Source: an uncultured Verrucomicrobia subdivision 3 bacterium
GTDB taxonomy: Bacteria; Verrucomicrobiota; Verrucomicrobiia; Limisphaerales; UBA11358
Assembly: GCA_903850425.1 (NCBI GenBank)
Contig: CAINLR010000056.1
Location: forward strand, 1,918-65,917
Direction of reading: 5' to 3'
DNA length: 64,000 bases
Below, one piece after another: positions 7,517-43,500 of this stretch (position 1 is its first letter; each line of letters begins with the position of its first letter). Position numbers and translations under genes: made by a program. The notes under the pieces were generated by a model. The model was given only the letters and a program-made list of their open reading frames with translations. It did no database searches and was not told where the DNA came from.

Positions 7517-7990
7517 CTAGGTTGAGCTTGGGAAATTGGGGGCGGCGGTTGGCGGACGATTGAATCCCGCCTGATAGCGAACGCCATCCACCTCCGCGGT
7601 TCCAATCGGCCCGATATGCATCTCAAACCGCCCCAGTTGGGCGTGTTCAAATGGATGAATACCACACGCAAGCGGCACGTCTGTTCGCCCACGGAGGATG
7701 AGGGAAAATTTCTCATGGTCGGCATCCCCGGGCAAACGGCGGCCCGGCACGATGGGCGTGGTTGGAGCCAGCGGAGCTTTGAGCAACGTGAGTTCCACGA
7801 AGTTCCCGGGAGCAACGCAAACGCGGAATGCAGTGTTGATCTGGCTGGCGAAATCGGCGTAGCTGATTTGCGCGAGCGAACGAAGGGGGCGGCCGGGGGC
7901 GGCCGGCCGTGCGAATGCACTCACCGGCACCACCGCGAGGGCCGCCATGGCAACGGAACAATCAAGGATAAATTGGCGGCGCGATTTCAT
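7517..7990 (-). CDS. Tat-signal small secreted protein of unknown function
   Basis: A twin-arginine signal MKSRRQFILDCSVAMAALAVVPVSAFA starts at ATG 7990. The ORF-track start at 8152 would bury this signal. There is a 33-nt gap to the tail-collar gene on the same strand. The pattern EKFSLILRG...FEMHIGPIG...VRYQAGFN resembles a DUF I cannot name with certainty. Confidence 0.65.
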   Translation of the reverse strand: MKSRRQFILDCSVAMAALAVVPVSAFARPAAPGRPLRSLAQISYADFASQINTAFRVCVAPGNFVELTLLKAPLAPTTPIVPGRRLPGDADHEKFSLILRGRTDVPLACGIHPFEHAQLGRFEMHIGPIGTAEVDGVRYQAGFNRPPTAAPNFPSST

Positions 7991-8140
7991 TTGCCTCACC
8001 GGACTCAAACCGGAACAGTTAACGCCGTTTATGTTAACTATAATGTGCCCAGAGTCAAAACAATTTCCGGCCGATGTGCTCGGCCGGTGCGGTGCCGAAC
8101 CGTGATGGATGATTTCACCGGCGATTACGCTTGTCGGCAA

Positions 8141-9289
8141 ATGTCTTTTCACCTAGAAACACGGGCGCGGGTCGCCGGGCAATTCCGCCCGTTGCGAACG
8201 TCACCAATCACTTTGAACGCCATTACTGTCCGCGACGAACAACCCCAGGATGAAGCGTTTTTGTTCGAGCTGTTTAGCAGCACACGACAGGCAGAACTGG
8301 ATGCCTGGGGCTGGCCGCCCGAACTGCGGAGCAACTGGCTGCAACTGCAGTTTCGCGCCAGCCAGGGCCATCACACCACATTTCCCCACGCGGAATTTCA
8401 AATCGTCCTGCTCGACGGCGTGAAAGCCGGCCGGCTCATCCTCCAGCGCACCCCGGCGGAATTGCAACTCGTGGACCTGGCGCTGCTGCCTCAGCATCGC
8501 AACGCTGGCATCGGCGCGGCCTTGTTGCAGAGAATTTTCGGCGAGGCGGCGGCCACAAAAAAACCACTGCGGCTGCAGGTATTCAAGACCAACCGCGCCG
8601 TCCGGTTTTATCAACGACTCGGCTTTGTGCCAACCGGCGAGACCGAGCTCCACTTTGAAATGGAATGGCGCGCACCCGTCGCGCCCATCCTCGAGCCGGT
8701 CATGCCGGACGCGGTGAAGACGCCTTGGCAATTCGACGTCGCGCGGCTGCAGGCCGATTTGTCGCGCATGGTGGCAGATGAATTTTTGCCGCACTTCAAC
8801 ACGGCGAATTACCAGGGCGATTGGAGCGCGGTCCCGCTGCGCGCCATCGGTGGGCGCACCGACCATATTTACCCCGACCCCGCCGCGAAAAATAAATTCG
8901 CCGACACTCCCCTGCTCGCCCGCTGTGATTACATTCGCGAAGTGCTCGCGACCCTCCAGTGCCCGCTGCAAGCCGTTCGCTTCCTACGGCTCAAAGCGGG
9001 CTCCCTCATCAAGGAGCATCGCGATCATGAACTCGGTTTCGAGGACGGTGAAGTGCGCTTGCACATACCGGTCCGCACGAATCCCGAGGTGGAGTTTGTG
9101 CTGAACCAGATTCGCGTCATCATGAACGAAGGCGACTGCTGGTATCTGAACGTCAACCAGCCGCATCGGGTTGCCAATCGCGGTGCCACGGACCGCATTC
9201 ACCTCGTCATTGATTGCGTCGTGAATGAATGGCTGCGCAACGTGCTGCTGACGGCGGCGGTGGAAGCGAAAAAAACCGCCGGTGGCTAG
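8141..9289 (+). CDS. GNAT acetyltransferase fused to aspartyl/asparaginyl beta-hydroxylase-type cupin
   Basis: The N-terminal half has the GNAT acetyl-CoA motif (LLPQHRNAGIGAALLQ ... RFYQRLGF). The C-terminal half has the AspH/LpxO-type pattern (KEHRDHE ... VRLHIPV ... GDCWYLNVNQPHRVANRG ... RIHLVIDC). The track ORF starts at 7616, but that part overlaps the opposite-strand gene. ATG 8141 is taken as the start and is uncertain. Confidence 0.8.
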   Translation: MSFHLETRARVAGQFRPLRTSPITLNAITVRDEQPQDEAFLFELFSSTRQAELDAWGWPPELRSNWLQLQFRASQGHHTTFPHAEFQIVLLDGVKAGRLILQRTPAELQLVDLALLPQHRNAGIGAALLQRIFGEAAATKKPLRLQVFKTNRAVRFYQRLGFVPTGETELHFEMEWRAPVAPILEPVMPDAVKTPWQFDVARLQADLSRMVADEFLPHFNTANYQGDWSAVPLRAIGGRTDHIYPDPAAKNKFADTPLLARCDYIREVLATLQCPLQAVRFLRLKAGSLIKEHRDHELGFEDGEVRLHIPVRTNPEVEFVLNQIRVIMNEGDCWYLNVNQPHRVANRGATDRIHLVIDCVVNEWLRNVLLTAAVEAKKTAGG

Positions 9290-11206: not shown

Positions 11207-11815
11207 TTATTCCGGCAGTTTCATCATCTGGTCGCCCGTCATCGGGAGCGCACCGTTGCCCACTTCGGAACGGATCTTCTTGAGGTCCTCGGCGGTGATG
11301 GGTGCGGCTTTGTTGCCCCACGAAGTGCGGATGTAGCTCAAAACGGCGGCGAGATCTTCATCGGGCAAAGCGGCCCCCATTGCCGCCATGTTCATATTCC
11401 AATCTTGGCCCGCGACTTTGATCGGACCGCTGATACCCTGGAGCGGAATATGCGCGAGCCGATTCATGCCTTTGGTGATGACCCATTCGGAGCCGGCCAA
11501 CTTCGGAGCCTGACCGGGTTTGCCGAGTCCGTCCGGACCGTGGCAGATGCCGCAGACACTGTCGTAAACCACCTTGCCCCGCGCCCGCGCCGCCGCCTCG
11601 CCGGACTTGGGTTGGTAAGCTTCCACTTCCTCGGCGGAATTGAAGGGCGCGTAAATCTTCGGACTGAACCAGCCGCCGTGATGATCAAAATAAACGCCGC
11701 CGACAAACAACAAGATCAGCGTGACGACGATGATCCACATCGGCACGGTTGAGCGCGTCGCGGTGGGTTCGCCGGCAGAATTGGCGCAGCAATCTTTGTG
11801 GGATTCGTCACTCAT
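11207..11815 (-). CDS. membrane-anchored monoheme cytochrome c (occupies the CcoP position)
   Basis: N-terminal TM helix MWIIVVTLILLFVGGVYF and a single CGICHG heme site. ATGA overlap with the upstream CcoO-like gene. It is the last gene of the operon. Confidence 0.8.
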   Translation of the reverse strand: MSDESHKDCCANSAGEPTATRSTVPMWIIVVTLILLFVGGVYFDHHGGWFSPKIYAPFNSAEEVEAYQPKSGEAAARARGKVVYDSVCGICHGPDGLGKPGQAPKLAGSEWVITKGMNRLAHIPLQGISGPIKVAGQDWNMNMAAMGAALPDEDLAAVLSYIRTSWGNKAAPITAEDLKKIRSEVGNGALPMTGDQMMKLPE

Positions 11816-12699
11816 GGCTTGGCGGAAATAACCGGCGTGAACGGGGCTTCGTAAAGCGGCACGTTGGCGCGCAGGCTCAAAAGATAGGCGACCAGTTGTT
11901 TGGCTTCGGCCTTCGGAACAACTTCATAACCGGCGGCGGGAGCAAATTCCTTGGGCAGCGTCAGCGCTTCTGGCGAAGTAGCGCCGTCCACTTGTTTGCG
12001 GACTTCAAATAAATAGCGAAACGCCGGCATCACGGAATTTTTGGCAACGGCGCCGGGCGCATAAAGATGCTGCAATTGCACGTTCGCATCGGCCATGCGC
12101 ACTCCGATGTTGGCCAGATCGGGACCTGCGCGCAGGCTGCCAAGTTGCACCGGATTGTCGTAGAGAAAATCGGCGGCGACGCTGCGGCGATTGCCCCAAC
12201 CGCGCGAAAGATCGGAGCCGAAAGCATAAATGCGAGTTTCGGATTTGCAGCCGGCGGCTTTCAGCAGGTCGGCCATTTTATCGGCGGACTCTTTGTCGGT
12301 TTTGGCGAGGACAACCTGCGGCAAGATGCCAGTCCAATCTTTGAAGGCTGCGGACAATTCCTTGGTGTGATCTAGCCATTCCGGCAGCGTGAGCAACGAC
12401 TGCGCAAAGGGTTTAAAATCCTCAGGCTTATTTTTACCGAGCGACGTCAGCGAGACTTCGCAAGACACGCCCTCCTGTCGCACTTGTTCCGTGTGACAAG
12501 CCGCGCAGCCGTTGGCGCGATAAATCTGCAAACCCAGCGTGGCGTCGCCATTGCGCTGAACCGGATAGGTGTCGGTGGAGTTGAGCACGGTCGCAAGCTT
12601 GGCGCTGCCCAGCTGCAACGACGGTGCCAGCACCAGACCGCACCAAGAACTGCCGAGCGCGAAGGCAGCCGCGATAAAAACGCCGATTCCAGTTTTCAT
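11812..12699 (-). CDS. cbb3-type oxidase subunit II (CcoO/FixO)-like monoheme cytochrome c with ~80-aa insertion
   Basis: From ATG 12699 there is a TM anchor, then GLQIYRANGCAACHTEQVR, RRSVAADFLYDNPVQLGSLRAGPDLANIG and HLYAPGAVAKNSVMPAF, all colinear with CcoO. The CH-to-GPDL spacing is ~117 aa versus ~35 aa in canonical CcoO. Confidence 0.8.
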   Translation of the reverse strand: MKTGIGVFIAAAFALGSSWCGLVLAPSLQLGSAKLATVLNSTDTYPVQRNGDATLGLQIYRANGCAACHTEQVRQEGVSCEVSLTSLGKNKPEDFKPFAQSLLTLPEWLDHTKELSAAFKDWTGILPQVVLAKTDKESADKMADLLKAAGCKSETRIYAFGSDLSRGWGNRRSVAADFLYDNPVQLGSLRAGPDLANIGVRMADANVQLQHLYAPGAVAKNSVMPAFRYLFEVRKQVDGATSPEALTLPKEFAPAAGYEVVPKAEAKQLVAYLLSLRANVPLYEAPFTPVISAKP

Positions 12700-14132
12700 G
12701 CTTTCACCTCCGAGACGGGCAGCGGCGCTTTGATGGCCGCGAGCGCCGTTTTGAGCAGCGCAATTTTCCACTGGATCGTCATGACGAAAATATTCAATGC
12801 AAACAGCAGCGCGCCGAGCAGCAGAATGAGTTGTCCGGTGGTGCTGATGCGGAAGAACAACACGGCCGCGGCGTTCACATCCGCGAAGGCGAGGTTCGCG
12901 TCATGCAGTTTGATCCCTTGCTCCACGCCGGCAATGGCCAGCGGAATCACGAACAGAGCTACGCCAGCGAGTGCGAGAAAGAAATGGAGCTTGGCAAATT
13001 TCGGAAACGGCAGCGGTGCATTCATCACGCGCGGCAATAATTCATAAATCGCGCCGAACATGATCATCGCGAAGAAGCCGAGCAGTTGCAGTTGCACTTG
13101 CGCCGGACTGAACCAGGTGAATTCCAGCACCCGACTATATTTGGGACAAGCCAGGGAGACATACATCAGGCCGGAGATGATAAAGAAAATCATGCCGATC
13201 TTGGTGAAGCAGAACGGTCCGCCTGAGTATGCGACCTTCGCGCCGCGAACCGTTTGGATGACAATGATGGCGATGGCCACCAGCGGCACGAGCAGGAGTC
13301 CTCCGGCAAGCCCGCTTAACGTCGGCAGCCACGCGGGCACCGGCGCACCGGCCGGAATGCCGCACCAGGCACCGAAGAAAACCAACGTGAGAAAGGAAAA
13401 GAGAGCGTAGCCGGTCGTCGCCAGCGGACGAGTGGAAATTTTTGGCAGGAGATAGAAGGCCGTGCCAACGCCGACGAGCGCGAGCCAGACGAAAATGAGA
13501 TTATTCGTAAACCACCAGCCGATGATGGGCTGCACGACGCCGCGCACCGGCGAGTTCGTCGCGAGCAGCAGATTGGCCGTCGAATAAATCCAAGGAAACC
13601 ACAGCAGCGCCGCAAACAAAAACCAATGGGCCGGTTGCAGCTCGCGATCGCGCCGTGCACCGAACGTGGCCGCCGCCGTCACGGCGATCAAGAGAAAGGC
13701 AGCAAACAATAAGACGGAAGCGGCGCGCGAAAATTCCAACCAAGTGTGTCCGCTAGTTTCACCGATCAAAATTCCCGCGAGACCGAGGAACACGCCGAGA
13801 TGCCAAAGGTTAGCAGCCACGACGGGAACGATGGGCAAGGCCAGTGGCGTCTGGCCGAGGCGCGCAAAAATCCAGAGGATCACGCCGAGTCCGGCGGGCA
13901 TGCAAAAACCGTAGAGCAAGGCGTCGTTCGCCGCGGGAGCGACGCGGCCGTAGGTCAGCAGCGAGCAACTGGCGAACATGTCGGGCTTGTGAAAAGTCAA
14001 CGAAGCCACGATGCCCAGCGCCAGGCCCACGACCAACCACACCGCTGCGCCGCCCAGCAGCGCGAGCACTGAGACCCGCAACGAGGCATTGATCTCGGCT
14101 TCGGTCGAAAGTTTATTGTCGTTCAAGTTCAT
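12696..14132 (-). CDS. cbb3-type oxidase subunit I (CcoN)-like polytopic membrane protein lacking metal ligands
   Basis: 478 aa, about 12 TM helices, colinear with CcoN (GWWFTNNLIFVWL, LLPKISTRPL, WLPTLSG, LLGFFAMIMFGAIYELLPR). Every canonical His ligand position is substituted. ATGA overlaps at both ends. Confidence 0.8.
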   Translation of the reverse strand: MNLNDNKLSTEAEINASLRVSVLALLGGAAVWLVVGLALGIVASLTFHKPDMFASCSLLTYGRVAPAANDALLYGFCMPAGLGVILWIFARLGQTPLALPIVPVVAANLWHLGVFLGLAGILIGETSGHTWLEFSRAASVLLFAAFLLIAVTAAATFGARRDRELQPAHWFLFAALLWFPWIYSTANLLLATNSPVRGVVQPIIGWWFTNNLIFVWLALVGVGTAFYLLPKISTRPLATTGYALFSFLTLVFFGAWCGIPAGAPVPAWLPTLSGLAGGLLLVPLVAIAIIVIQTVRGAKVAYSGGPFCFTKIGMIFFIISGLMYVSLACPKYSRVLEFTWFSPAQVQLQLLGFFAMIMFGAIYELLPRVMNAPLPFPKFAKLHFFLALAGVALFVIPLAIAGVEQGIKLHDANLAFADVNAAAVLFFRISTTGQLILLLGALLFALNIFVMTIQWKIALLKTALAAIKAPLPVSEVKA

Positions 14133-14497
14133 TCAAATGCACTCGGTTTTTCAGGTGCTTTGGGAGCCGGCGCGGCGGCTTTTTCGGCGCGGGCATTCAA
14201 ATCCGCGCGAGCGGCAGCGGGATTCTGCCACGCTTGAGCCGTCAGTTGCTCGGCGGTTTCGATCGGTAGCCGGACCAGTCCCTTGGCTTGGTCCACCCAT
14301 CCCAGATGGTTCAAGGAAGCGCTTTCCACCGTGCGAATTTCCGCGAGGGCTTTGGCGCGGACCGCGTCGCGATCGGCATCCAAGGCGGGCACACGGACCT
14401 GCTCTTTGACGATCACAGCCAGCACGGCAAACAGCACACTGACGATGATCACGCCAATGGCGGCGGCGGTGGAGCGGTTGATGGTTTGCAGATTCAT
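14129..14497 (-). CDS. small single-pass membrane protein (between actF and the CcoN-like gene)
   Basis: 122 aa from ATG 14497: MNLQTINRSTAAAIGVIIVSVLFAVLAVIV plus a soluble Ala/Lys-rich tail. ATGA overlaps with both neighbours. The ORF-track start 14752 would overlap actF extensively. Confidence 0.6.
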   Translation of the reverse strand: MNLQTINRSTAAAIGVIIVSVLFAVLAVIVKEQVRVPALDADRDAVRAKALAEIRTVESASLNHLGWVDQAKGLVRLPIETAEQLTAQAWQNPAAARADLNARAEKAAAPAPKAPEKPSAFE

Positions 14498-15750
14498 CCG
14501 TTGGCCTCCGCCGGGTTGGAGCCAGCGAGATCGTTGGCGGTATTCATGTTCACGCCCATGGCTTCGAGCAGGCGCGGATCCTTCTGCGGATACGGCGCGT
14601 GTTTGGCAAAATTCTTCGAAAGCGCCCGGGCGAGGAATCCGCCCATGAACAGAAAGCAGCCGAGTTCCAGGCCGATCCAGCGCAGCGGATAACCATCTTG
14701 GTGGTGGCCAGGCAGAATGTTGAACGCGAGATCGAGCGCGTGCATCGCCCACGCCCAGAGGCAGACAGGGATGACGATTTTAGCCCGACTTTTCACCGAG
14801 ACCGGCAGCAGGATGAAGAACGGAATCATGAAATGACCGAAGATCAAAACCATGCTCACGCACCACCACGAACCGTTTTCGCGGATGAGATACCAGAAGG
14901 TCTCGGTCGGCATGTTAGCGTTCCAGACGACAAAGTATTGGGCGAATTCCGTGTAGGCCTGAAAGAGCGTGAACGCGAAGAACAGCACGCCGATAAAATA
15001 ATAACTGCTGTCCTGAAACACGCCAGAGAGCACGCCCTGACGTTTGAGTCGGACGGTGAGAATATAGACCGTGGCCAGCGCCACCCAGACGCTGCTCGCA
15101 AAGAAATAAACGCCATACATCGCGGAATACCATTCGTGCTGGAGCGATTTCATCCACAGGACGCCGGAGAAAGTCAGGCTCACCGCGAAAGCAACGATAC
15201 CCCAACCGGAGTGGAAGCGCATTTTGTGCGTGCATTCCGCCGCGCCGGTTTGGTCCTGCTGGAGCGACCAGCGTTTCAACTGCGACGTGAGCAGCCACCA
15301 GATGCCGAAGAGAACCGCCGATGCGATCCAGAAACCGGGTTTGGTGAACACGGGCAGCTTGGCCGCCACGGTGTTGTCGGTTGTCGGATCAATCGTCATC
15401 CAACCGTAAATCTTCGGCGCGAGCAGTGCGATTGGCAGGAATAAAATCGCGAGATGCGGAAACAACAGCGCAGCGATGTGTTCGTTGAAACGGCGAATGC
15501 CGACCGACCACCCGGCGTCGGTCAGGTGATGAATCAGAACCAGAAACAGGCAGCCGAGCGCGATGCTCAGGAAGAACATGAACGCGAGCAGCCAGGAAAT
15601 TCCAAAATCCACGCCGTGGTCCTGGCTGAAACTTTTCAGCCCGCCGATGGCACACAGAATCGCGCCGATCACCATCATCACGGTCGGCAAAGCACTGAAG
15701 CCGAGGCCGACTTTCGGCGGGTTCGCAGGGTTGTTAGGAAGCGGATTCAT
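14494..15750 (-). CDS. actF: alternative complex III subunit ActF (polytopic quinol-site-like membrane subunit)
   Basis: 418-aa polytopic membrane protein immediately after actE. Position and architecture match ActF. Confidence 0.8.
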   Translation of the reverse strand: MNPLPNNPANPPKVGLGFSALPTVMMVIGAILCAIGGLKSFSQDHGVDFGISWLLAFMFFLSIALGCLFLVLIHHLTDAGWSVGIRRFNEHIAALLFPHLAILFLPIALLAPKIYGWMTIDPTTDNTVAAKLPVFTKPGFWIASAVLFGIWWLLTSQLKRWSLQQDQTGAAECTHKMRFHSGWGIVAFAVSLTFSGVLWMKSLQHEWYSAMYGVYFFASSVWVALATVYILTVRLKRQGVLSGVFQDSSYYFIGVLFFAFTLFQAYTEFAQYFVVWNANMPTETFWYLIRENGSWWCVSMVLIFGHFMIPFFILLPVSVKSRAKIVIPVCLWAWAMHALDLAFNILPGHHQDGYPLRWIGLELGCFLFMGGFLARALSKNFAKHAPYPQKDPRLLEAMGVNMNTANDLAGSNPAEANG

Positions 15751-15751: not shown

Positions 15752-16405
15752 TTATTTCAGCGCCGCTTTTTGTTCCGCCGGCAAATCGTTGGTCGAACCG
15801 AGCCAGCTCAACTGCAAGGCACGGAGATAGGCAATGGTCGCCCAGCGGTCCGCCGTCGGCATCAACGGACCGACCGCGCCCATCAAGCCTTTGCCGTGCG
15901 TCACGGTGCTGAAAATTTCGCCATCGGTCATCACCACGATCCGTTTGTCATGCAGATTGGCCACTGCCGGCATCACTCCGATTTTTTTGGTAATGCCATT
16001 GCCGTCACCCAGCTTTCCGTGACAGGGTGCGCAATAAATATCGAAGCGTTCATGTCCGCGCTGAATCATCTCAGCCGCGACCGGCAGCGGATTCAATTCG
16101 ACAAAATTCGTCGTGCCAGTGACGAGGCCGGTGTTGACCGGTGAATCTTCAAAGCCATAAACCGCGCCGGTCGTGGTCTGAATCGGTTCGCCGCGTGCCA
16201 CCGTGCCGGCGGGCGGCAACTGCGAACTGACGCCATTCGCGTAAAAATGATTCGGCTCCATCGGCCGCAACTTCGCCTGACGATCCATGTCCGGAAATAA
16301 TTCCAACGGCGGTTTGCGCGACAGCTTGCCTTGGAAACCCAGAATGCCAAACGCCGCAGCGCCGATCGCGGCACCGATCAAAAGGATGGAAATGATGAGT
16401 CGCAT
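15752..16405 (-). CDS. actE: alternative complex III monoheme cytochrome c subunit ActE
   Basis: N-terminal anchor, single heme site YCAPCHG, and C-terminal WATIAYLRALQ typical of ActE. Confidence 0.85.
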   Translation of the reverse strand: MRLIISILLIGAAIGAAAFGILGFQGKLSRKPPLELFPDMDRQAKLRPMEPNHFYANGVSSQLPPAGTVARGEPIQTTTGAVYGFEDSPVNTGLVTGTTNFVELNPLPVAAEMIQRGHERFDIYCAPCHGKLGDGNGITKKIGVMPAVANLHDKRIVVMTDGEIFSTVTHGKGLMGAVGPLMPTADRWATIAYLRALQLSWLGSTNDLPAEQKAALK

Positions 16406-16944
16406 CAGGCTTCCTCCTCCACGATTTCGATGTGCTTGCCGCCGATGGCTTCGAGCAACTGGCGGGTTTCCTGCTCGCAGAACTTGTCGTCCAGCGCGCC
16501 GATGAGCAGGAAAAACTTGTCGCGGGAGGCAAGGATAAAACGTGGTTTGTGCAGGAGCGGATGGTGCAGGCGCGGGAGTTGATTCAATCCCAGCATCCCG
16601 ACCAGCGCGCCCACCGCGCCACCCATGATCAGCATGATGTAAGACGGAACGAAGGTCATCGGCACGCTGAACATCGGCTTGCCACCGACGAGGAGCGGAT
16701 AATCAAAGGCGTTGCTAAACCAGAGCAGCCCGACAACGGAAGCAAACGCCCCGCCGCCCATCGCGAGCGAAACCCAGCCGACCATTGAGTTGCCAAGGTT
16801 CATGACCTTTTCCATGCCGTGAATCGGGAACGGCGTGAAGGTGTCCCAGCGCCGATAGCCGGCGTCGCGGACCTTCTCCGCCGCGTGGAGAATGGCCGCT
16901 GGAGAATCAAATTCGGCGATGATGCCATAGACTTTTTCGCTCAT
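16405..16944 (-). CDS. actD: alternative complex III subunit ActD (DUF3341-type)
   Basis: MSEKVYGIIAEFDSPAAILHAAEKVRDAGYRRWDTFTPFPIHG followed by two TM helices. Confidence 0.85.
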   Translation of the reverse strand: MSEKVYGIIAEFDSPAAILHAAEKVRDAGYRRWDTFTPFPIHGMEKVMNLGNSMVGWVSLAMGGGAFASVVGLLWFSNAFDYPLLVGGKPMFSVPMTFVPSYIMLIMGGAVGALVGMLGLNQLPRLHHPLLHKPRFILASRDKFFLLIGALDDKFCEQETRQLLEAIGGKHIEIVEEEA

Positions 16945-18374
16945 GGCTGGCCTCCCTTTTTGTTGGTGGCGCCGCCCAGCACATGGTGCGGATCGCCGTG
17001 CGGCACCGCGCCTTTGACTTCAGAAATCGCGATCATCGGCAGGAATTTCACGAACAGCAGATACAGCATGAAGAACGTGCCGAGCGTGCCGACGTAAAGT
17101 CCGATGTCCCAGATGGTCGGCATATATTTACCCCAGTTAGCCGGGAGAAATTCCTGATACAGCGAGCCGACAACGATGACGAAACGTTCCGTCCACATGC
17201 CGATGTTGATCAAAATGCCGATGACGAATAGCACCGCCAAATTCGCCCGGATTTTTTTGAACCAGAGCAGTTGCGTGACGCAGACGTTGATGCCAATCAG
17301 CATCCAGCCCAAAATCCAATAGGTGTGGCCGAAGAGGCGATGACCGAACACCCATTTTTCGTAAGGATCGCCGCTATACCAGGCAATGAAAAATTCCATC
17401 GCGTAAATGTAGGCGATGATCAGACCGCTCACCAACGTCAGCTTGGCGACTTTATCAATGTGCGACAGCGTGATCACTTCTTCCATGTGGCACCATTTGC
17501 GCAAAGGAATCAAAATCACCAGCATCATGCCGAAGCCGCAGAACACGGCACCAATAACGAAGTAGAGCGGGAAAATCGTGGCGTGCCAACCCGCAAGCTG
17601 TGAGGTGCAGAAATCCAAACCGACAATGGAACTCACGGTGAACACGAGCAGCGTGCAGAGACCGGAGAGAACGACATAGGCTTTTTCGTAATTGTGCCAG
17701 TGCCGCGCCGAACCAGTCCAACCCATCGCGAGAATGCTGAAAATAATTTTCCGCACGCGCGTCGTGGCGCGGTCGCGCAGCACGGCGAAGTCGGGGATCA
17801 TGCCCATGAACCAGAACAGCATCGAAACGGTCATGTAGGTGTTCACGGCGAACACGTCCCACATCAGCGGCGACTTGAACTGCGGCCAGAGGCCGTTCGA
17901 GTTCGGCACCGGAAACATATACCAGTCGAACCACGCGCGACCGACGTGGATGGCCGGATACGCCCCCGCCATCATCACGGAGAAAACCGTCATCGCTTCC
18001 GCCATGCGACCAATCGTGGTGCGCCAGTGTTGCCGCGTCAAAAAGAGCAGCGCGGAAATCAATGTGCCCGCGTGCGCGACGCCGACCCACCAGATGAAAT
18101 TCACGATGTCCAAGCCCCACATCACCGGATGATTGTTGCCCCAGACGCCGACGCCGGTGAACACTTGATAGAACAGGCAGAACGGGAGAACGACCGTGGC
18201 GCAGAAGGCCGCCGGCAGAAACAGAATCCACCACCACATCGGCGTTTTGCCTTCGGCGAATTCGGACAATTTGTCCGTCAGCACGCCGAGGCCGCCACTG
18301 CATTCCACCACGGGCGCTCGGCGTAATTCAGCCGGCGCGGCGTAGTTTTTCAAATTGGTCACGGGTTCAGACAT
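16941..18374 (-). CDS. actC: alternative complex III subunit ActC (NrfD/PsrC-like)
   Basis: 477-aa polytopic NrfD-family-like protein directly after actB. 1-nt and 4-nt start/stop overlaps with its neighbours. Confidence 0.9.
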   Translation of the reverse strand: MSEPVTNLKNYAAPAELRRAPVVECSGGLGVLTDKLSEFAEGKTPMWWWILFLPAAFCATVVLPFCLFYQVFTGVGVWGNNHPVMWGLDIVNFIWWVGVAHAGTLISALLFLTRQHWRTTIGRMAEAMTVFSVMMAGAYPAIHVGRAWFDWYMFPVPNSNGLWPQFKSPLMWDVFAVNTYMTVSMLFWFMGMIPDFAVLRDRATTRVRKIIFSILAMGWTGSARHWHNYEKAYVVLSGLCTLLVFTVSSIVGLDFCTSQLAGWHATIFPLYFVIGAVFCGFGMMLVILIPLRKWCHMEEVITLSHIDKVAKLTLVSGLIIAYIYAMEFFIAWYSGDPYEKWVFGHRLFGHTYWILGWMLIGINVCVTQLLWFKKIRANLAVLFVIGILINIGMWTERFVIVVGSLYQEFLPANWGKYMPTIWDIGLYVGTLGTFFMLYLLFVKFLPMIAISEVKGAVPHGDPHHVLGGATNKKGGQP

Positions 18375-21300
18375 TAACCATTGCCTTTCTTCTCGTGGTC
18401 AAACGGATTCCCGTTGAGCTGCTCGTATTCCTCAAAGCTGTGCGGCCATTCGCGGTAATCCGGCATGAGCGGATTGGGATTGCGGACGCGCGCGAGGTAA
18501 GTCGTGCGCGGCTTGGTGAGCAAATCGGCGAGCACGCCATAATTCTGTGGCTGCGCTTTCGCTTTGGAAACCGCGCTCTCTGGATCGCTGACATCACCGA
18601 AGACGATCGCACCGGCCGGACACGCCTGCTGGCAGGCGGTTTTTGGAATCGTTCCCGCCGCTTCCAATAGCCGGACATTATCCGAACCGCCGGCCTTGGC
18701 CTTCTGCCCGATTTTCGCATGTTCGATGCGCTGCGTGCAGTAAGTGCATTTTTCCATGACGCCGCGCATGCGGACGGTCACGTCAGGATTCTTCGACAGC
18801 TTGATGAGATCCCATTCGTCCTCCGAACGCATGCCGCTATTCGGATCCTTCCACCAGCGCAAAATATCGAGCTCGCCATCCGTCTTGTGACCGAGCATCG
18901 CACTCGAATAGATCGGTCCCTTGAGTTCACTCAACGGGCGCTTGTTGAAATCGAGATAATTAAAACGGCGAACTTTATACGGACAGTTGTTCGAGCAATA
19001 GCGCGTGCCGATGCAACGGTTATACGCCATCACGTTCAGGCCTTCCTGGTCGTGGACGGTCGCGTTGACCGGGCAGACGCTTTCGCACGGAGCCATTTCG
19101 CAATGCTGACAAAGCATCGGCTGGTTCACGGCCTGCACATCGTCAATCCATTCGGAGAACTGCTGGTCTTCGTCCGTCTTGAATTTGTCCGCCGGATTTT
19201 CCTTCTTGGGATCAGCAGTGTAATAGCGGTCAATGCGCATCCAGTGCATTTCGCGGCCGCGTTTCACCTGATCCTTGCCGACAATCGGAATATTATTTTC
19301 GCTCTGACAGGCGACCACGCAGGTGCCGCAGCCGACGCACGACGTGAGATCAATCGCCATGCCCCATTGATGCAATGCCGTCTTCTTGGCCTCGTCGAAC
19401 GGATTCGGATAAAGTGATTTGACGATCGGCGGTTCCTTGCCGTGCATCTCTTCGGCAAAGTTCGGCAGCTTGGTGAACTCCGCCAGATTCGCCTCGCGCA
19501 CCGCCGGCCGGCCTTCCATGGACCAATGATCCTGCGTGCAAGCGATGACATGCGTCTCGCCCGTTTTGTGGATCGTTGCGCCGGTCTCGATATATTTACC
19601 GCTGAAAATTTTATACGCGTTGAAGCCCACGCCGGTGCCAACGCGCCCTGCCCGCTCGCGACCGTAACCGAGCGCGAGGCCGAGCGAATAATCCGCCATG
19701 CCCGGCTGCGTCCAGATCGGTCCGATCACTTTCTGACCGTTCAAGGAAATTTCGACGAGATCGCCGTTGGCCACGCCAAGATCACGCGCCGTTTTGCGGC
19801 TGACGAGCACGGCGTTGTCCCACGTCATCTTCGTGATCGGATCGGGCAACTCCTGCATCCAGCCGTTGTTGGCGTAGCGACCGTCATCCACTTTGGCGTC
19901 ACGGAAGAAAACCACTTCGAGATTGCTCGCGGAAAGCACAGGCTTACCTGCTTCCACCAAGAGCTGGTTCAAAGCGCTGGTAGATTTAACCATTTTGACG
20001 TTTTCAAGCGACTTGGACGAACCCGCAACAAAGCCGTTGAATAAAAATTTCTTCCATTGTTCCCCATCCACAAAACTGCCATGAGTGCTGCGGACCGCCA
20101 GAATTGAACCCAACGATTGGCCGAGGATGCGCCACAGAAAATCCAATTCCGACAAACCGCCGAACAACGGCTGAATCAACGGCTGAACCGGAACCAAGGT
20201 GCCGTCGCTGGTCGTCGCATCGCCCCAGGATTCGAGATAATGCGCCGCCGGAAAATTCCAGTTGGCGAGTTCGGCCGTTTCGTCTTCGTAATATCCGAGC
20301 CGGACGACCGTCTTGGCTTTCTTCTGCAAAGCCGCCCAGTTCATCTGGCCGGGACTATTCTGGACCGGATTGCCGCCGAGAATCACCAGCGTGTCCACCG
20401 CGTGTCCGTCCAAATATTTGGCGAGCTGGCCAGATGCTCCACCGCGATTGTCCGTGCCCGGAATGAGGGCCACCGTATTGCCGATGCAATCCAGCGCAGT
20501 GTTGATGGCGTGCGCGAGCAGATGCACCACCAGCGGCTGGCGCTGACCAGCGATGACCAGGACGTTGCCGCGGTTTTTTGCCAGGTCATTGGCACATTCA
20601 GAAATCCACTTGAGATCCAAGTCTGCCGGCACCGTTGTCACGCCGGGCGTCTGGCCGGAAATGACCGCGCCGAGAATGGCGGCAGCGATTTGAGCGACGG
20701 AACTCGCTGCCACGCGCAGCCGGTGATCCGCGTTCGCGCCGGTGAGCGTGAACAGCGATTCAATCGCGTAAAGCCGGCTCATCCCCTGCCCGGCCTTGCG
20801 GCCAGCGGCAAATTTGCGGATGTGCTCATGCGCGCCGTCCTCGCCGCCGAGAAAATCGCAGTCGAGCGACAGAATGACCTTCGCCTTATCGAAATGGAAA
20901 ACCGGATGCACCGGCTGGCCAAACGCCTGCGTGGCCGCGCGCTGGTGGATGCCGGAATCAATCGCGTCGTAGGTGAACCACTGCGACTTAGGAAATTTGG
21001 AGGCGATGTTTTGTTGAACGCGCCACCGCGACGGCGACGTGCTGCTTTCAGAAAGAAACGCCAGCCCTTCGCCAGAGTTCGCGGCGAATTTTTTGGAAAG
21101 TTCGTCGAGGAAATTCAACGCTTCTTCGCGCACAACCACTTTACCGTCGTGTTTGAAATGGCGGGCGCGGTCAGGATCGTAAAGATCCAAAATCGAAGCC
21201 TGCGCGTAGCGGTCGGTGCCGCCGTTGCTGCCGGGAAACAACGCGTTGCCTTCGATCTTGATCGGCCGACCTTCGTAGGATTTGACGACCAGCGGAATCG

Positions 21301-21628
21301 CACCGGTGCGCGTGGGCATGGCGGTGGCAAAATACTGTGCCTCGCCAAAGGTATAATTTTCCGGCTGCTGGCCGAACGGTTCCAGCTTCTCTTCGGGCCG
21401 ACGGCAACCGGAGCCGAGCGTCGCGATGCCGGCGAAGGCAAACGACGCCGACATGATTTTGAGAAAATTGCGGCGGCTCTGGCCGTCCTCCACCAACTCG
21501 CTCGCGCCCACGGGAAATTCGCGATGCAGCCAGTCCTTGAACTCCGGCGTGTCGGCCAGTTCGTCCAGGCTGCGCCAGTAACGGCGGCCGGTAACAGGCG
21601 AAGTCGAATTGTTCAAATTATTTTTCAT
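18374..21628 (-). CDS. actB: alternative complex III subunit ActB (molybdopterin-oxidoreductase-like + 4Fe-4S ferredoxin fusion)
   Basis: From ATG 21628 there is a Tat motif RRNFLKIMSASFAFAG and a large MopB-like N-half. The C-half has FeS cysteine clusters CVGCGTCVVAC, CQHCEMAPCESVCP, CIGTRYCSNNCP and CTYC...CQQACP. Confidence 0.9.
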   Translation of the reverse strand: MKNNLNNSTSPVTGRRYWRSLDELADTPEFKDWLHREFPVGASELVEDGQSRRNFLKIMSASFAFAGIATLGSGCRRPEEKLEPFGQQPENYTFGEAQYFATAMPTRTGAIPLVVKSYEGRPIKIEGNALFPGSNGGTDRYAQASILDLYDPDRARHFKHDGKVVVREEALNFLDELSKKFAANSGEGLAFLSESSTSPSRWRVQQNIASKFPKSQWFTYDAIDSGIHQRAATQAFGQPVHPVFHFDKAKVILSLDCDFLGGEDGAHEHIRKFAAGRKAGQGMSRLYAIESLFTLTGANADHRLRVAASSVAQIAAAILGAVISGQTPGVTTVPADLDLKWISECANDLAKNRGNVLVIAGQRQPLVVHLLAHAINTALDCIGNTVALIPGTDNRGGASGQLAKYLDGHAVDTLVILGGNPVQNSPGQMNWAALQKKAKTVVRLGYYEDETAELANWNFPAAHYLESWGDATTSDGTLVPVQPLIQPLFGGLSELDFLWRILGQSLGSILAVRSTHGSFVDGEQWKKFLFNGFVAGSSKSLENVKMVKSTSALNQLLVEAGKPVLSASNLEVVFFRDAKVDDGRYANNGWMQELPDPITKMTWDNAVLVSRKTARDLGVANGDLVEISLNGQKVIGPIWTQPGMADYSLGLALGYGRERAGRVGTGVGFNAYKIFSGKYIETGATIHKTGETHVIACTQDHWSMEGRPAVREANLAEFTKLPNFAEEMHGKEPPIVKSLYPNPFDEAKKTALHQWGMAIDLTSCVGCGTCVVACQSENNIPIVGKDQVKRGREMHWMRIDRYYTADPKKENPADKFKTDEDQQFSEWIDDVQAVNQPMLCQHCEMAPCESVCPVNATVHDQEGLNVMAYNRCIGTRYCSNNCPYKVRRFNYLDFNKRPLSELKGPIYSSAMLGHKTDGELDILRWWKDPNSGMRSEDEWDLIKLSKNPDVTVRMRGVMEKCTYCTQRIEHAKIGQKAKAGGSDNVRLLEAAGTIPKTACQQACPAGAIVFGDVSDPESAVSKAKAQPQNYGVLADLLTKPRTTYLARVRNPNPLMPDYREWPHSFEEYEQLNGNPFDHEKKGNG

Positions 21629-22287
21629 CGGTGACAGGCCGAGCAGCTTTGCAACGTTTCCACTTTCCAATCATGGACGAATTTCTTGCCATTTACTTCC
21701 TGCAATTTCGCGGCTTCCTCGTCGTTCGTGCTCCATTGCCAGCCGAGTTCGGTGACCTTGTCGGTGGGGCGAATCTTGGCGGCAGGGTCGCGATGGCAAT
21801 CCAAACAAAAACTCATGCTCAAGGATTTGGCGTGGCTGACTTCTTCCATCTGGTCAATGCGCCCGTGACATTCCACGCAGCTCATGCCGCGCCGAATGTG
21901 GACGGAATGGTTGAAATAGACGTAATCGGGAACCTTGTGAACCTGCACCCACGGAATGGGAGTATTATTGGTGGCGCTGTCGCGAACGATTTGCAGACGC
22001 GGATCGTCTTTCAACACCTGGTTGTGGCAGTTCATGCAGGTGGAGGCGCCGGGCAAATTGGCGAACCAGGATTTTTCCACGCCGTTGTGACAATAGCGGC
22101 AATCCAGCCCGAGCTGGCCGGCGTGAATCTTATGGGAGAACGGGACCGGCTGCACCGGTTGATAGCCGGCACGCGTGTATTTGGGCGTGAGATAAATCGT
22201 CACACCCGCAGCCACGGCGGCACCGGTCAATGCCGCAATGACGCCCAGCGCCAGCGGCAAGCTATTTGTCCATTTCGGGAAAATCAC
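21625..22287 (-). CDS. actA: alternative complex III pentaheme cytochrome c subunit ActA
   Basis: N-terminal anchor and five CxxCH sites (CRYCH, CMNCH, CVECH, CLDCH, CSACH). Confidence 0.9.
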   Translation of the reverse strand: MIFPKWTNSLPLALGVIAALTGAAVAAGVTIYLTPKYTRAGYQPVQPVPFSHKIHAGQLGLDCRYCHNGVEKSWFANLPGASTCMNCHNQVLKDDPRLQIVRDSATNNTPIPWVQVHKVPDYVYFNHSVHIRRGMSCVECHGRIDQMEEVSHAKSLSMSFCLDCHRDPAAKIRPTDKVTELGWQWSTNDEEAAKLQEVNGKKFVHDWKVETLQSCSACHR

Positions 22288-38896: not shown

Positions 38897-40366
<1,470 letters not shown>

Positions 40367-40406
40367 AATGTGATGCTTGACGAGTAATACGCGATCCGTG
40401 GCGTTC

Positions 40407-40562
40407 GGGGTGGAACCGGCTTCCAGCCGGTCGTTTCGGGCATCCTGCCCGAAACCCGGGCGCGCTGAACGTAGTCAATTCCAATGAGAACTTCCGCCCG
40501 CACCGCGCGCCGGGCAACCGGCAAGATGCCGGTTGCCACAGGCTGGAAACCTGTTCCACCCG
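40407..40562. repeat. inverted pair of ~57-nt GC-rich modules (GGTGGAAC..TTCCAGCC + hairpin)
   Basis: The left module is GGGTGGAACCGGCTTCCAGCCGGTCGTTTCGGGCATCCTGCCCGAAACCCGGGCGCG. The reverse complement of the right module is GGGTGGAACAGGTTTCCAGCCTGTGGCAACCGGCATCTTGCCGGTTGCCCGGCGCGCG. The pair lies between the DUF1501 start and the PSCyt stop. Confidence 0.6.
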
Positions 40563-40586
40563 CACAAATACAAGTATTCTTTGGGT

Positions 40587-43500
40587 TCATCGCTCCACGA
40601 AAAATTCGTCAAAGTTCATAATGGCGCTGACCATCAGCGTCGTGGCCGCGAAATCGGCCGCCGGCAGCGTCGCGTCCCATTTGGATTCGCCCGTGGCCAA
40701 CAGTTTCTTCGCGCCGGCTTGGTCTTTCGCGAACAGATTTTTCTGCTCCGCAAAAGCCTCACCAAGGATTTTTATCTCTGTTGCATCCGGCGCGCGGCCG
40801 ATCAATCTCTTGAACGCCAGTTGTGCGCGGGCGTTCACGTCATCGGGAAATTGCTTCAGCAACTTCTCCCCGAGCACCCGCGCAGCTTCGATGAATTGCA
40901 GGTCATTCAACAGCACGAGCGCCTGCAACGGCGTGGCGGTGGTTTCACGCTTGGCGGTGCAGACCTCGCGTGTGCCGGCGTCGAAGGTGAGCATTGACGG
41001 TGGCGGCGACGTGCGTTTCCAGAACGTGTAGAGGCTGCGGCGGTAAAGTTTATCACCGTGATCCTGCGTGTATTTCGCCCCGGTGCCGGACTGCTCCCAC
41101 AAGCCTTCGGGCTGATAGACCTTCACGCTCGGCCCGCCGATATTGGTCACGAGCAAACCGCTGGCCGCGAGCGCGCCGTCGCGGATTTCTTCCGCGAGCA
41201 AACGCGTTTTGGGCCCGCGTGCCAGGAGATGATTTTCCGGGTCGCGCTCCAGCAAATCTTTGGAAGCGTGCGAAGACTGCTGATAGGTGGCCGATGCAAC
41301 GATGAGCCGATGCAACGCTTTCACGTCCCAGCCATTGTTCACGAACCAGCCAGTGAGCCAGTCGAGTAATTCGGGATGCGACGGTAATTTCCCCTGACTG
41401 CCAAAGTCATCCGCTGTGGCCACGATGCCGCGACCAAAGTGCATTTTCCAAATGCGATTCACGACCACGCGCGCGGCGAGTGGATTTTGTTTTTCAACGA
41501 GCCAGTCCGCGAGACCGAGCCGGTTGCGCGGCGCGTTGGCGGGAAATTTCGGGAGCGCGGCGGGCGTGTCCGGCTGCACCACGTCGCCGGGCGCATCGTA
41601 AGCGCCACGCTTGAGCAGATGCGTTACGCGCCGCTGGGGCAATTCCTCCATCACCATGATTTCAGGCACATCGTTGACGAGCGCGTTTTCCTGCTCGCGC
41701 AAATTCTTCAACTCGGCGAGCGCGGTGCGAAACGGTTCGCTCTGGCGGGCAAGGAAGTAATCCAATGTTGCCGGAACGTCGAGCCCTGTCTTGGCCAGTT
41801 GATTATTGCTTTGAAAACTTGCCGAGCCGGTGCTCGGCGTTCCGGTCGCCAGCAACTTCACTTCCGGCTCCGTCAACGCTTGGTCGAAGACCTGCAAATC
41901 ATCAATCGCCCCATTTTTGAAACCGCTGTCGCGAAAACGGCCGGCCAGCGTGAGGTTGATCTTGCCGACTTCCGCATCGCCCCACTCGGCGCGATGCACA
42001 ATGTCCTTGTAAAGATGATCGCGCACGACTTCGGTTTCCAGTTTCGCGCCGTTGAAATAAATTTTAATTCCTGCGGCGCGACTGGAGCCGTCGTAAGTCA
42101 CGACCAGTTGCGACCACTCATTCGTCGGCAAAAAATTTTTTGCGCGCACGGCAATGGCATTGCCCGGCCAGAAATGGATCAGTCCGAAAAAAGGTTTTCC
42201 GTGATCCAGCACCAGTTCGTAACCGCGACTGCCGGAGTCCGACCAGGCGCGCGAATGATGCAGCACCACCGCGCGATCTTGCGCTTCGGCTGGCTTGAGC
42301 CACAGGCTGAAGGAAAACGAATCGGTGCGCTTAAAATCACCCACGCCTTTGCACACGACTTGGTTGTCGCCGCTGAATTGGAGGGCCTGACCCGCGTGGC
42401 CGGCAACCAGCCGTGGTTCGTCCTCCAAACGGGCCGGATTTGTTGAGACCTCATCCGGCGTCGTGTGGTTTTCCACCTTATCGAATGAGAAATGCGCCAC
42501 GGGCGTTGGCAGTTTCACTGTCGCCTCTTTTCGCCAAGCCGCAAAATCCTTGGCCGCCGACTGCGAAATTTCTCGCAACTCCGCCTCTTTGTCCGCGATC
42601 TGCTTATTCACCGCCGCGCGCTGCTTTTCATTTTCCGGCGAGGCGAGCAGCAGCGTTGGCGTCGGCGTGGCATGCGTGAAGTGGGAATACAGGCCCGATT
42701 CGTCAATGTTGTTGAAGAAGGCCGCGAGCGAATAGTAGTCGCGCTGCGTGAGCGGATCAAACTTGTGATCGTGGCAGCGGCAGCAGCCGACCGTGAGGCC
42801 GAGCATCGCGGTGCCGAACGTGTTCACGCGATCGGCGGCGTATTCGGCGCGGAACTCCTCTTCGATGCTGCCGCCTTCGTTGGTCTGGCGATGCAGGCGG
42901 TTGAAAGCCGTGGCAATTCTCTGATCGCGCGTCGCGTTGGGCAGGAGATCGCCCGCGAGCTGCCAGCGGAGAAATTCATCGTAGCGCAGATTCTCGTTGA
43001 AGGCGCGTATCACCCAGTCGCGCCAGGGCGACATGTCGCGATCCACGTCCGCCTGATAGCCGTAAGTGTCGGCGTAACGTGCCAGGTCGAGCCAGTCCAG
43101 CGCCATGCGTTCGCCATAGGCCGGCGAGTTCAAATATATTTCCACCGCGCGCGCGTAGGCATTGGGCGAATGGTCAGCCAGAAAAGCGTCCAGCGCCGCC
43201 GCGCTCGGCGGCAGGCCGGTGAGATCGAGCGCCAGCCGACGCAGCAACGTCGCGCGGTCGCCCGCCGGCGAGGGCGATAATTTCTCCGCCGCCAGTTTGG
43301 CGAGCACGAAGTCATCAATCGGATTTTTCACCCACGCTTTGTCCGGCACGACGGGCGGCTTCACTTTGCCCACCGGGATGAACGACCACAGCGGCTTGTA
43401 TTCGGCACCTTGTTCCACCCAGCGTTTGAGCAGGTCTTTTTCCGCGTCGGACAGGACGAGCTTGGATTTTTCGGGCGGCATCTGGTCGTCGTCCGTCGCA

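Follow-up and report, generated by a model that had tools for sequence, protein, structure and literature searches.

Why would a bacterium keep subunit I of a cbb3-type cytochrome oxidase in an operon with alternative complex III (ACIII) when every heme and copper ligand of the subunit is gone? The question arose from a 64-kb stretch of DNA (Limisphaerales, Verrucomicrobiota subdivision 3; hereafter the window, meaning the whole stretch that was analysed). A preliminary description had reported a 478-aa CcoN homologue at 12696-14132, colinear with canonical CcoN and substituted in four ligand-bearing motifs, and had read it as a scaffold or channel subunit. We found this open reading frame at 12696..14132 on the minus strand, which the description had left unstated, and located the four motifs at residues 60-76, 203-217, 252-268 and 338-353 of its product. 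This product, hereafter CcoN*, is homologous to subunit I of cbb3 oxidases, has 478 aa and 12 TM helices, and lacks the cross-linked Tyr and each of the six His ligands.

Identity of CcoN* and its operon

The Pfam COX1 profile (PF00115) matched CcoN* with E=8e-34 and 117.7 bits (cut-off 34.8), and did so end to end, spanning residues 23-435 of the protein and 4-435 of the 436 profile positions. The score against the NCBIfam ccoN equivalog (TIGR00780) was 114.3 bits, below the cut-off of 583.15. In a phmmer search of the PDB, residues 29-455 aligned with residues 21-456 of P. stutzeri CcoN (3mk7_A, E=6e-21). An AF2 model of CcoN* (pLDDT 91, pTM 0.91) contained 12 TM helices, and its top Foldseek matches were CcoN chains, with TM-scores of 0.86-0.87, an rmsd of 2.2 A and 21-22% identity; the TM-score against 3mk7_A was 0.87. 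Judged by sequence and predicted fold, CcoN* is a true full-length CcoN homologue, and the colinearity claimed for it held up. With CcoN of the P. stutzeri cbb3 oxidase (3MK7/5DJQ) it has in common the 12-TM fold, the G-R of FGRxRP, the second W of WW, the P..W of xLPxW, E125 and H384. R57 of FGRxRP is A in CcoN* and, among 127 ligand-less representatives, survives in just 31.

The ACIII genes lie upstream of CcoN* in the order A-B-C-D-E-F, all on the minus strand. The first, actA (21625..22287), starts with GTG and encodes a 220-aa pentaheme cytochrome c with five CXXCH motifs, matching Cytochrome_C7 / Cytochrom_CIII in Pfam and a QrcA-like family in NCBIfam. The large peripheral subunit, encoded by actB (18374..21628; 1084 aa from an ATG at 21628), was assigned by tblastn to positional counterparts in related loci, to which it is 44-81% identical; Pfam matches to Fer4_7 / Fer4_11 were seen in the products of its orthologues. 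Next, actC (16941..18374) encodes a 477-aa NrfD-like membrane subunit (Pfam NrfD, E=6.6e-17) and overlaps actB by 1 nt and actD by 4 nt. The product of actD (16405..16944; 179 aa) matches Pfam PF11821 (ActD) over its full length with E=5e-52, and that of actE (15752..16405; 217 aa) is a monoheme cytochrome c with one CAPCH and matches to Pfam Cytochrome_CBB3 / Cytochrom_C. A second large membrane subunit is encoded by actF (14494..15750; 418 aa), which has no Pfam or NCBIfam match and was assigned by position, size and conservation, being conserved in 79 of 80 loci and in distant loci.

According to the preliminary description, ATGA overlaps join CcoN* both to a CcoO-like gene and to actABCDEF. 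The first of these joins is present and the link to the act genes is real, but CcoN* does not directly adjoin actF: a conserved ORF (14129..14497, minus strand) lies between them and encodes 122 aa with a single TM helix at the N terminus. This ORF occurs in all 80 Limisphaerales loci and in most distant loci, with a dN/dS of 0.13-0.25, and had no match in Pfam, NCBIfam or the PDB. The resulting ten-gene array, actABCDEF-122-aa ORF-CcoN*-CcoO*-cytochrome c, has successive overlaps of 4, 1, 4, 1, -1, 4, 4, 4 and 4 nt, with ATGA at actA/actB, actF/ORF, ORF/CcoN*, CcoN*/CcoO* and CcoO*/cytochrome c. Examining the synteny of the orthologues with the act genes, we found the order retained in every locus of sufficient length: as far as the contigs of the 80 genome loci extend, at 47% identity as well, and, at 30-37% identity, in 30 of 30 long loci from metagenomes. 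A scan for a promoter or terminator of the operon gave nothing above chance.

Loss of ligands and channel residues

We read the ligand columns (P. stutzeri numbering) from the phmmer alignment to 3mk7_A and from MAFFT alignments. The bis-His pair of the low-spin heme b (H60, H347) is replaced in CcoN* by A and Q, and the His of the high-spin heme b3 (H345) by Q. The three CuB His (H207, H257 and H258) give way to N, P and a gap or A, and the cross-linked Tyr (Y251) to G. Inspection of profile alignments at these columns placed a His at none of them. The preliminary description was right about the full loss, although the replacements it listed (A, N, G/I, Q, Q and F) need correcting to A, N, G, P, gap/A, Q and Q. 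It had also counted six His in the whole protein, which we found at residues 48, 111, 129, 169, 383 and 410; the His-free stretch runs from 170 to 382, not from about 168 to about 398, and spans all ligand positions of CuB, of heme b3 and of heme b on the TM12 side. With these ligands missing, CcoN* would be incapable of O2 reduction, and we infer that it carries no such cofactor in vivo.

Ligand-less CcoN is a large family rather than a singular oddity. A two-pattern scan found relatives in at least 286 GTDB species genomes, with the ligand state examined in the best 80, and the orthologues at all 80 Limisphaerales loci were without the ligands. H60 is A in 80 of 80 and H347 is Q in 78 of 80; the H345 column holds Q, V or E and the Y251 column G, A, S or T. 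A single orthologue has a CuB-column His, at one of the three columns (pattern ANGHDQQ). Recurrence of the loss at 80 of 80 orthologous loci is far beyond chance. Homologues of CcoN* numbered 941 at E <= 1e-5, the best 120 of the 941 being 62-100% identical to it, and those at E<=1e-30 formed 311 clusters at 50% identity. Among the best 150 representatives of the 50%-identity clusters, about 146 were without most or all of the ligands and only three had the HHYHHHH pattern.

Full loss of catalytic residues is a possible sign of gene decay, and CcoN* might on that ground be a pseudogene in decay; alternatively, a normal ccoN might have been misassembled or misannotated. However, the 478-aa ORF is intact and polytopic, as had been claimed, and its orthologues are mostly of similar length (463-565 aa in 77 of the 80 genome loci and 418-449 aa in the three shortest). 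The orthologues are neither frameshifted nor relaxed: dN/dS of CcoN* was 0.05-0.22 across 11 pairs, a range equal to that of actB, actD and actF. CcoN* is under purifying selection, as strong as that on the act genes. Assembly error is ruled out by the occurrence of the same feature in hundreds of independent assemblies, and the AF2 model is a confident one. The homologue counts, dN/dS and orthologue lengths refute decay or artefact as the explanation, and we assign it a negligible probability.

For the C-family proton channel, the polar residues were compared as well. The channel residues T215, Y223, S240, Y317 and N289 reportedly go back to Hemp et al. 2007 and Buschmann et al. 2010. In CcoN*, T215 is replaced by A, Y223 by F, S240 by A, H243 by S, Y251 by G, N289 by I and Y317 by F. 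Across 127 representatives of the ligand-less family, S240 is A in 106, T215 is G or A, Y223 and Y317 are often F, and N289 is retained in 97; liganded PVC CcoN retain T, Y, S, Y and N at T215, Y223, S240, Y317 and N289. Most of the channel's polar residues are lost in CcoN*, so the channel is, as far as sequence can tell, degraded. CcoN* thus differs from cbb3 CcoN in lacking the six His and Tyr251 and in having most of the K-type channel polar residues replaced. Because these polar residues are mostly gone too, a scaffold is favoured over a channel, which strengthens the first of the two roles offered in the preliminary description and weakens the second.

Could the ligand-less subunit have gained a new function instead? 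It might bind another cofactor (a non-His heme, a quinone or a metal), or conduct or couple ions or protons, and ACIII would thereby gain a catalytic or energy-conserving activity. The strength of purifying selection, equal to that on the act genes, is in keeping with such a gain, as are the retention of N289 in most representatives and the conservation of E133 and R160 in the ligand-less family. Replacements are also conserved within clades, with A67, Q345 and Q347 in Limisphaerales and, in the P0169-type clade, R/R/W together with an H in column 207, and this hints at a constraint beyond mere scaffolding. The small residues (A, G) at the old ligand sites do not obviously fill the heme pockets and could leave a cavity, which a lipid, a quinone or an unconventionally ligated cofactor could occupy. 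On the other side, not one conserved H, M, C, Y or K is peculiar to the ligand-less proteins; each is conserved in liganded PVC CcoN as well, where it is not a ligand. There is no conserved set of replacement ligands, the ligand columns differing from clade to clade, and R160 and Y61 were the sole family-specific conserved changes found. The channel's polar residues, moreover, have mostly turned apolar. We regard a new function of this kind as unlikely.

Conserved polar residues of the family (E133, R197, Q201, P264/P266/W268 and G62/R63) are predicted to lie in periplasm-facing loops, where CcoO docks in cbb3. This placement follows from the predicted topology of CcoN* and the N-in topology known for CcoN.

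Partner cytochromes and origin of the module

CcoO* (11812..12699, minus strand) is a monoheme, FixO/CcoO-like cytochrome c of 295 aa, anchored by one TM segment and enlarged by an insertion of ~85 aa. It matches Pfam FixO (E=8e-19) and CcoO chains in the PDB (E=2e-12 to 3e-10), and contains an SVMP Met-ligand motif. The CxxCH ascribed to it earlier is a single CAACH at residue 65, and CXXCH is present in 77 of 77 CcoO* loci. The last cytochrome (11207..11815, minus strand) is a 202-aa, TM-anchored, c552-like class I cytochrome c that occupies the CcoP position. It matches Pfam Cytochrom_C / Cytochrome_CBB3, and in the PDB it came closest to Thermus c552 and to the cytochrome c domain of NirK (2yqb, E=3e-17), with CcoP matching weakly (E=1.6e-5). 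Its one CGICH, at residue 88, is retained in 60 of 62 loci. Given their retained heme c motifs, both partners are, by sequence, redox-competent. The arrangement resembles that of cbb3 in that a monoheme subunit of the CcoO/FixO type comes after subunit I, and another c-type cytochrome after that. It differs in the third subunit, which is monoheme and c552-like here whereas cbb3 has the diheme CcoP, and in the ~85-aa insertion that CcoO carries in the Limisphaerales lineage. A tie between this insertion and ligand loss was considered and rejected, the ligand-less P0169-type clade having canonical spacing.

These cytochromes bear on a further alternative, in which CcoN* is an assembly or stability factor only, which ACIII biogenesis or a stable CcoO* would require, transiently or structurally, with the c hemes off the main electron path. 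The tight translational coupling of the genes suggests stoichiometric co-assembly, and CcoO and CcoP of the Rhodobacter capsulatus cbb3 oxidase are unstable without CcoN. However, almost all loci retain heme c motifs and the Met ligand in CcoO* and in the last cytochrome, which would be unexpected if these proteins carried no electrons, and we consider a purely assembly-related role distinctly improbable.

Where did the ligand-less subunit come from? In Opitutaceae strain TAV1, CcoN (P0485) has the full HHYHHHH pattern and lies in a locus of the layout actABCDEF - small ORFs - CcoN - FixO - cytochrome c; all ligands are present in 117 of 120 Opitutales relatives. The TAV1 locus shares its gene order with the window and differs in its CcoN, CcoN* having none of these residues. 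Since a liganded CcoN occupies the same position in the same layout, CcoN* is by position the orthologue of a functional cbb3 oxidase linked to ACIII, with the redox centre lost. Another relative, P0170, lacks the CuB ligands and keeps those of the hemes, so that a liganded (Opitutaceae), a CuB-less (P0170) and a fully ligand-less state form an evolutionary series in one operon context. An NJ tree weakly suggests two independent ligand losses. ACIII adjoining a C-type oxidase in Opitutaceae and in verrucomicrobial methanotrophs is described in PMC8498564 and PMC6688271, both citing Refojo et al. 2010.

The ancestor of CcoN* may accordingly be pictured as the oxidase half of an ACIII-cbb3 "superoperon". 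In Limisphaerales and other lineages, the cross-linked Tyr would have disappeared from this subunit together with all heme and copper ligands and most polar channel residues. The 12-helix fold, together with residues common to working PVC-type CcoN, would have been retained through the loss.

Proposed role and its precedents

We think it reasonably probable that CcoN* descends from CcoN, has lost catalysis and now serves in the membrane as a scaffold for a relay of c-type cytochromes attached to ACIII. As a platform, it would hold the CcoO-like heme c subunit and the tethered c552-like cytochrome beside ACIII. Electrons from menaquinol would enter ACIII, with its FeS clusters, ActA hemes and ActE, and would then pass to a two-heme c relay formed by CcoO* and the last cytochrome. 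In place of reducing O2 itself, the module would deliver them to terminal enzymes encoded elsewhere, which would be the final acceptor; no other oxidase was found within the 64-kb window. What the genes give is genetic linkage, from which we infer that CcoN*, CcoO* and the last cytochrome are physically associated with ACIII. Ligand-less CcoN also points to a physical ACIII-cbb3 supercomplex in PVC bacteria.

Two features of ACIII offer precedents for such an arrangement. Its ActB1 domain is an enzyme module lacking its cofactor and kept as a structural part, a loss that is ancestral to all ACIII. CcoN* would parallel ActB1, within the same complex, as an enzyme module turned structural after cofactor loss, and differs from it in belonging to another protein family and in that the ActB1 loss is shared by every ACIII. 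The homology of ActB1 to molybdopterin enzymes is described in PMC5928083. The second precedent is the ACIII-aa3/caa3 supercomplexes of Flavobacterium johnsoniae and of Rhodothermus marinus (PMC5928083), in which the complexes are physically coupled and electrons pass directly from heme c to heme c. There too, ACIII is encoded beside a heme-copper oxidase (HCO), which makes these supercomplexes a structural precedent for a CcoN*-ACIII assembly. Their partners are active A-family oxidases, in contrast to the C-family derivative without a redox centre described here.

A heme-copper centre ligated by His is the defining feature of the heme-copper superfamily, and a large family under purifying selection without any His ligand widens the uses to which the scaffold is put. 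According to Murali et al. 2024 (PMC11214002), gNOR are the first HCO family in which even one active-site His is replaced, and outside gNOR the active-site His are fully conserved in the superfamily. Like gNOR and other divergent HCO families, CcoN* has an altered active site and would not reduce O2; those families keep their hemes and most of their metal ligands, whereas in CcoN* every ligand is gone. We found no earlier description of a ligand-less CcoN in the literature; Ducluzeau et al. 2008 or Refojo et al. 2010 may mention one. We lean, if only slightly, towards the view that a whole, widespread branch of the HCO superfamily is without any redox cofactor, possibly having lost it more than once, and is retained in an ACIII supercomplex as a subunit that is indispensable but non-catalytic. 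It would be the first HCO "pseudoenzyme", and may have a new coupling or docking role. CcoN* is in addition a natural "catalysis-off" version with which the structural contribution of the oxidase subunit can be probed.

If this branch is indeed cofactor-less, genome- and metagenome-based calls of a "cbb3 high-affinity oxidase" in many Verrucomicrobiota would be false. Papers on Verrucomicrobiota count cbb3 among the terminal oxidases, and a genome survey that takes a ligand-less CcoN for a "high-affinity oxidase" is probably mistaken. The ligand columns need checking before microaerobic, high-affinity respiration is inferred for abundant soil and freshwater Verrucomicrobiota. In both JGI and NCBI, the ligand-less proteins carry the label "cbb3-type cytochrome c oxidase subunit I".

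Homology and ligand loss of the CcoN-like protein

The ORF at 12696–14132 of the window, on the minus strand, encodes a 478-aa protein that the preliminary description had called a homologue of CcoN, and all four motifs quoted there are present in the product. The homology is upheld by profile, sequence and structural comparisons. Pfam COX1 matches over its whole length, from profile position 4 to 435 of 436 (E=8e-34, 117.7 bits), and a phmmer search of all PDB chains returned cbb3 CcoN subunits only, with Pseudomonas stutzeri 3mk7_A at the top (E=6e-21, residues 29–455 aligned). An AlphaFold2 model built from 88 homologues was confident (pLDDT 91.1, pTM 0.91). Its closest structures are CcoN chains (TM 0.86–0.87, rmsd 2.2 Å, 21–22% identity), followed by cNOR NorB (TM 0.78) and then subunit I of the A and B families (TM 0.72–0.77). 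The match to the NCBIfam ccoN equivalog is colinear and, at 114 bits, far under the 583-bit cut-off.

Alignment to 3mk7_A and several MAFFT alignments agree on the ligand columns: the heme b ligands H60 and H347 are replaced by A and Q, the heme b3 ligand H345 by Q, the CuB ligands H207, H257 and H258 by N, P and a gap or A, and the cross-linked Y251 by G. This comparison with P. stutzeri 3MK7, proposed in the preliminary description, leaves no histidine at a ligand column. The protein does have the six histidines counted originally (48, 111, 129, 169, 383 and 410); since two of these are at 169 and 383, the histidine-free stretch is 170–382, slightly narrower than the ~168–398 first given. 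A 2024 survey of the superfamily described the active-site histidines as completely conserved outside gNOR (PMC11214002), whereas here all six histidine ligands are replaced.

The ACIII operon

The gene belongs to a head-to-tail array of ten minus-strand genes: actABCDEF, encoding alternative complex III (ACIII), a 122-aa ORF, the CcoN-like gene, a CcoO-like gene and a cytochrome c gene. Among the act genes, actA (five CXXCH motifs) is followed by actB in second place, actC (NrfD), actD (PF11821), actE (one CXXCH) and, sixth, actF. The FixO/CcoO-like protein (295 aa) carries CAACH and SVMP, and the last gene encodes a membrane-anchored, c552-like cytochrome (202 aa, CGICH). Successive genes overlap by 4, 1, 4, 1, -1, 4, 4, 4 and 4 nt, with ATGA at six junctions. 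The linkage to actABCDEF through overlaps therefore stands, but the join is not direct, as the 122-aa ORF (14129–14497, minus strand, single TM) lies between actF and the CcoN-like gene. No second oxidase was found among the larger ORFs of the 64-kb window.

This order is strongly conserved. All 80 genome loci have the small ORF upstream of the ligand-less CcoN, and 79 have actF there; the CcoO-like and cytochrome c genes are downstream wherever the contig extends. At 47% identity the called genes are still in identical order. Scanning metagenomes with a distant clade as seed (30–37% identical to the window protein) gave 30 loci that are 11 kb or longer, and in every one a single strand carries actABCDEF – (small ORF) – CcoN – CcoO – cytochrome c. 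CXXCH is retained in the CcoO-like protein at 77/77 loci and in the last cytochrome at 60/62. The 122-aa ORF (dN/dS 0.13–0.25) matched nothing in Pfam, NCBIfam or the PDB, and may encode an uncharacterised ACIII-cbb3 assembly subunit.

Extent, selection and origin of the family

By word-indexed search, 941 homologues came up; the best 120 are all ~478 aa and 62–92% identical, and those sources that name them use "cbb3-type cytochrome c oxidase subunit I". Exhaustive phmmer against 1.84 billion cluster representatives gave 1432 matches (311 with E<=1e-30). Only 3 of the best 150 representatives have the full ligand set (HHYHHHH at the seven columns); the others lack most or all ligands, with replacements that vary by clade. 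A GTDB species-genome scan with two peptide patterns only found relatives in 286 genomes, the best 80 of them Limisphaerales or subdivision 3 MAGs. Ligands are absent from all 80 of these loci (H60 to A in 80/80, H347 to Q in 78/80). The ligand-less CcoN is a family and no accident.

Pairwise dN/dS of the ligand-less CcoN (NG86, eleven locus pairs) was 0.05–0.22, matching the range that these pairs give for actB, actD and actF. A decaying pseudogene or an assembly error is excluded for practical purposes.

Some bins call for comment. One MAG, MJ-time_bin-6593, carries an act–CcoN module on each of two different contigs (L008 and L026, where CcoN identity to the window protein is 68% and 64%), reflecting either two genomic copies or a mixed bin. 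Limisphaerales-type operons with 56–69% identical CcoN also occur in MAGs whose record titles name Bifidobacteriaceae, Rhodospirillales, Methylomirabilota, Acidoferrum or Sulfotelmatobacter (L015, L019, L021–L023, L025, L042, L050, L064, L070, L078 and L079). Mislabelling or contamination of these bins is the most likely cause, and the cases do not show that the family extends beyond Verrucomicrobiota.

PVC bacteria supply the closest relatives with a complete ligand set, among them the planctomycete Telmatocola sphagniphila (P0229), and 117/120 relatives of one Opitutales protein show HHYHHHH. ACIII adjoins a C-type oxidase in Opitutaceae and verrucomicrobial methanotrophs (PMC8498564, PMC6688271, both citing Refojo et al. 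2010). Opitutaceae bacterium TAV1 has actABCDEF – two small ORFs (111 and 81 aa) – CcoN – FixO – cytochrome c, the layout of the window, but with a liganded CcoN. Metagenome loci in this context include 18 liganded and about 55 ligand-less versions. Because the layout is shared and both versions occur in it, the gene at 12696–14132 is, by position, orthologous to the oxidase subunit gene of an ACIII-cbb3 superoperon.

An Opitutales MAG encodes, in the same type of operon and behind a 98-aa small ORF, a protein that keeps H60, H207, H345 and H347, with A, Q and Y in place of Y251, H257 and H258 (P0170; L164, GCA_040903965.1, 5791–7251). This CuB-less CcoN may still be able to bind heme and is possibly an intermediate in ligand loss. 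In a rough NJ tree the liganded Opitutales clade is nested among ligand-less lineages, with two changes by parsimony, a faint hint that ligands were lost more than once. A second ligand-less clade (P0169-type, metagenome loci L083–L143) shows the conserved pattern A-(H/N/Q)-(T/S)-(S/A)-R-R-W at the seven columns; its bulky Arg, Arg and Trp at H258, H345 and H347 might fill the heme pockets.

The window CcoO-like protein has an insertion of ~85 aa that lies after CXXCH and before the conserved RxGPDL (12190–12474, minus strand, residues ~76–170), with a weak Pfam match to the Ribosomal_L12 C-terminal domain that is also recorded for the neighbour of P0297. CXXCH-to-RxGPDL spacing is 127 residues here, 96–133 across 75 Limisphaerales loci, and 43 in liganded operons. 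We rejected a tie between insertion and ligand loss, as the spacing is also 43 in the ligand-less P0169-type clade, where CcoO length is canonical; the insertion is lineage-specific.

Retained features and possible role

We compared 127 ligand-less representatives with 27 liganded PVC CcoN proteins. In the ligand-less set the ligand columns are variable and the C-family proton channel has largely lost its polar residues to replacement (S240 to A in 106/127, T215 to G or A, Y223 and Y317 often F), whereas liganded PVC CcoN retains them. Columns at least 85% conserved in the ligand-less set agree in residue with liganded PVC CcoN, except for two that stay small (G versus A) and R160, present in only 13/27 liganded proteins. 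Going by the model's helix pattern and known CcoN topology, the conserved polar E133, R197, Q201, PxPxW 264–268 and G62/R63 would lie in periplasm-facing loops, the CcoO site in cbb3.

The most economical reading, and to us a reasonably probable one, is that of an inactive oxidase that persists as a scaffold, broadly as the preliminary description proposed; its finding is real and the interpretation supported. The protein appears from its sequence to be a heme-copper oxidase superfamily member without cofactors and a fixed part of the ACIII module. Its 12-helix body would hold the CcoO-like protein and the tethered c552-like cytochrome next to ACIII, and their pair of c hemes would lengthen the ActA/ActE wire toward terminal enzymes encoded elsewhere. 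A new cofactor or coupling function is unlikely: R160 and Y61 alone are family-specific, and none of the conserved H, M, C, Y and K positions is confined to the ligand-less set. A purely assembly or stability role strikes us as improbable. Established ACIII-oxidase supercomplexes have A-family partners (PMC5928083), whereas the scaffold proposed here derives from the C family. We found no mention, in openly accessible literature, of redox-centre loss in the ACIII-linked "cbb3" of many Verrucomicrobiota, and a 2026 description of Limisphaera counts cbb3 among the terminal oxidases; the reading of "cbb3" genes in PVC genomes is directly affected.

Elsewhere in the window, a PSCyt1/PSCyt2/PSD1 protein (1064 aa, Laminin_G_3 domain) adjoins a DUF1501 protein (38897–43781, minus strand), a gene pair typical of PVC genomes and consistent with the window coming from a member of Verrucomicrobiota. 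The ORF at 7616–9289 (plus strand, 557 aa as listed) matches GNAT acetyltransferases at residues ~239–343 and an Asp/Arg beta-hydroxylase/cupin at 376–534; translation probably begins further downstream than the listed start.
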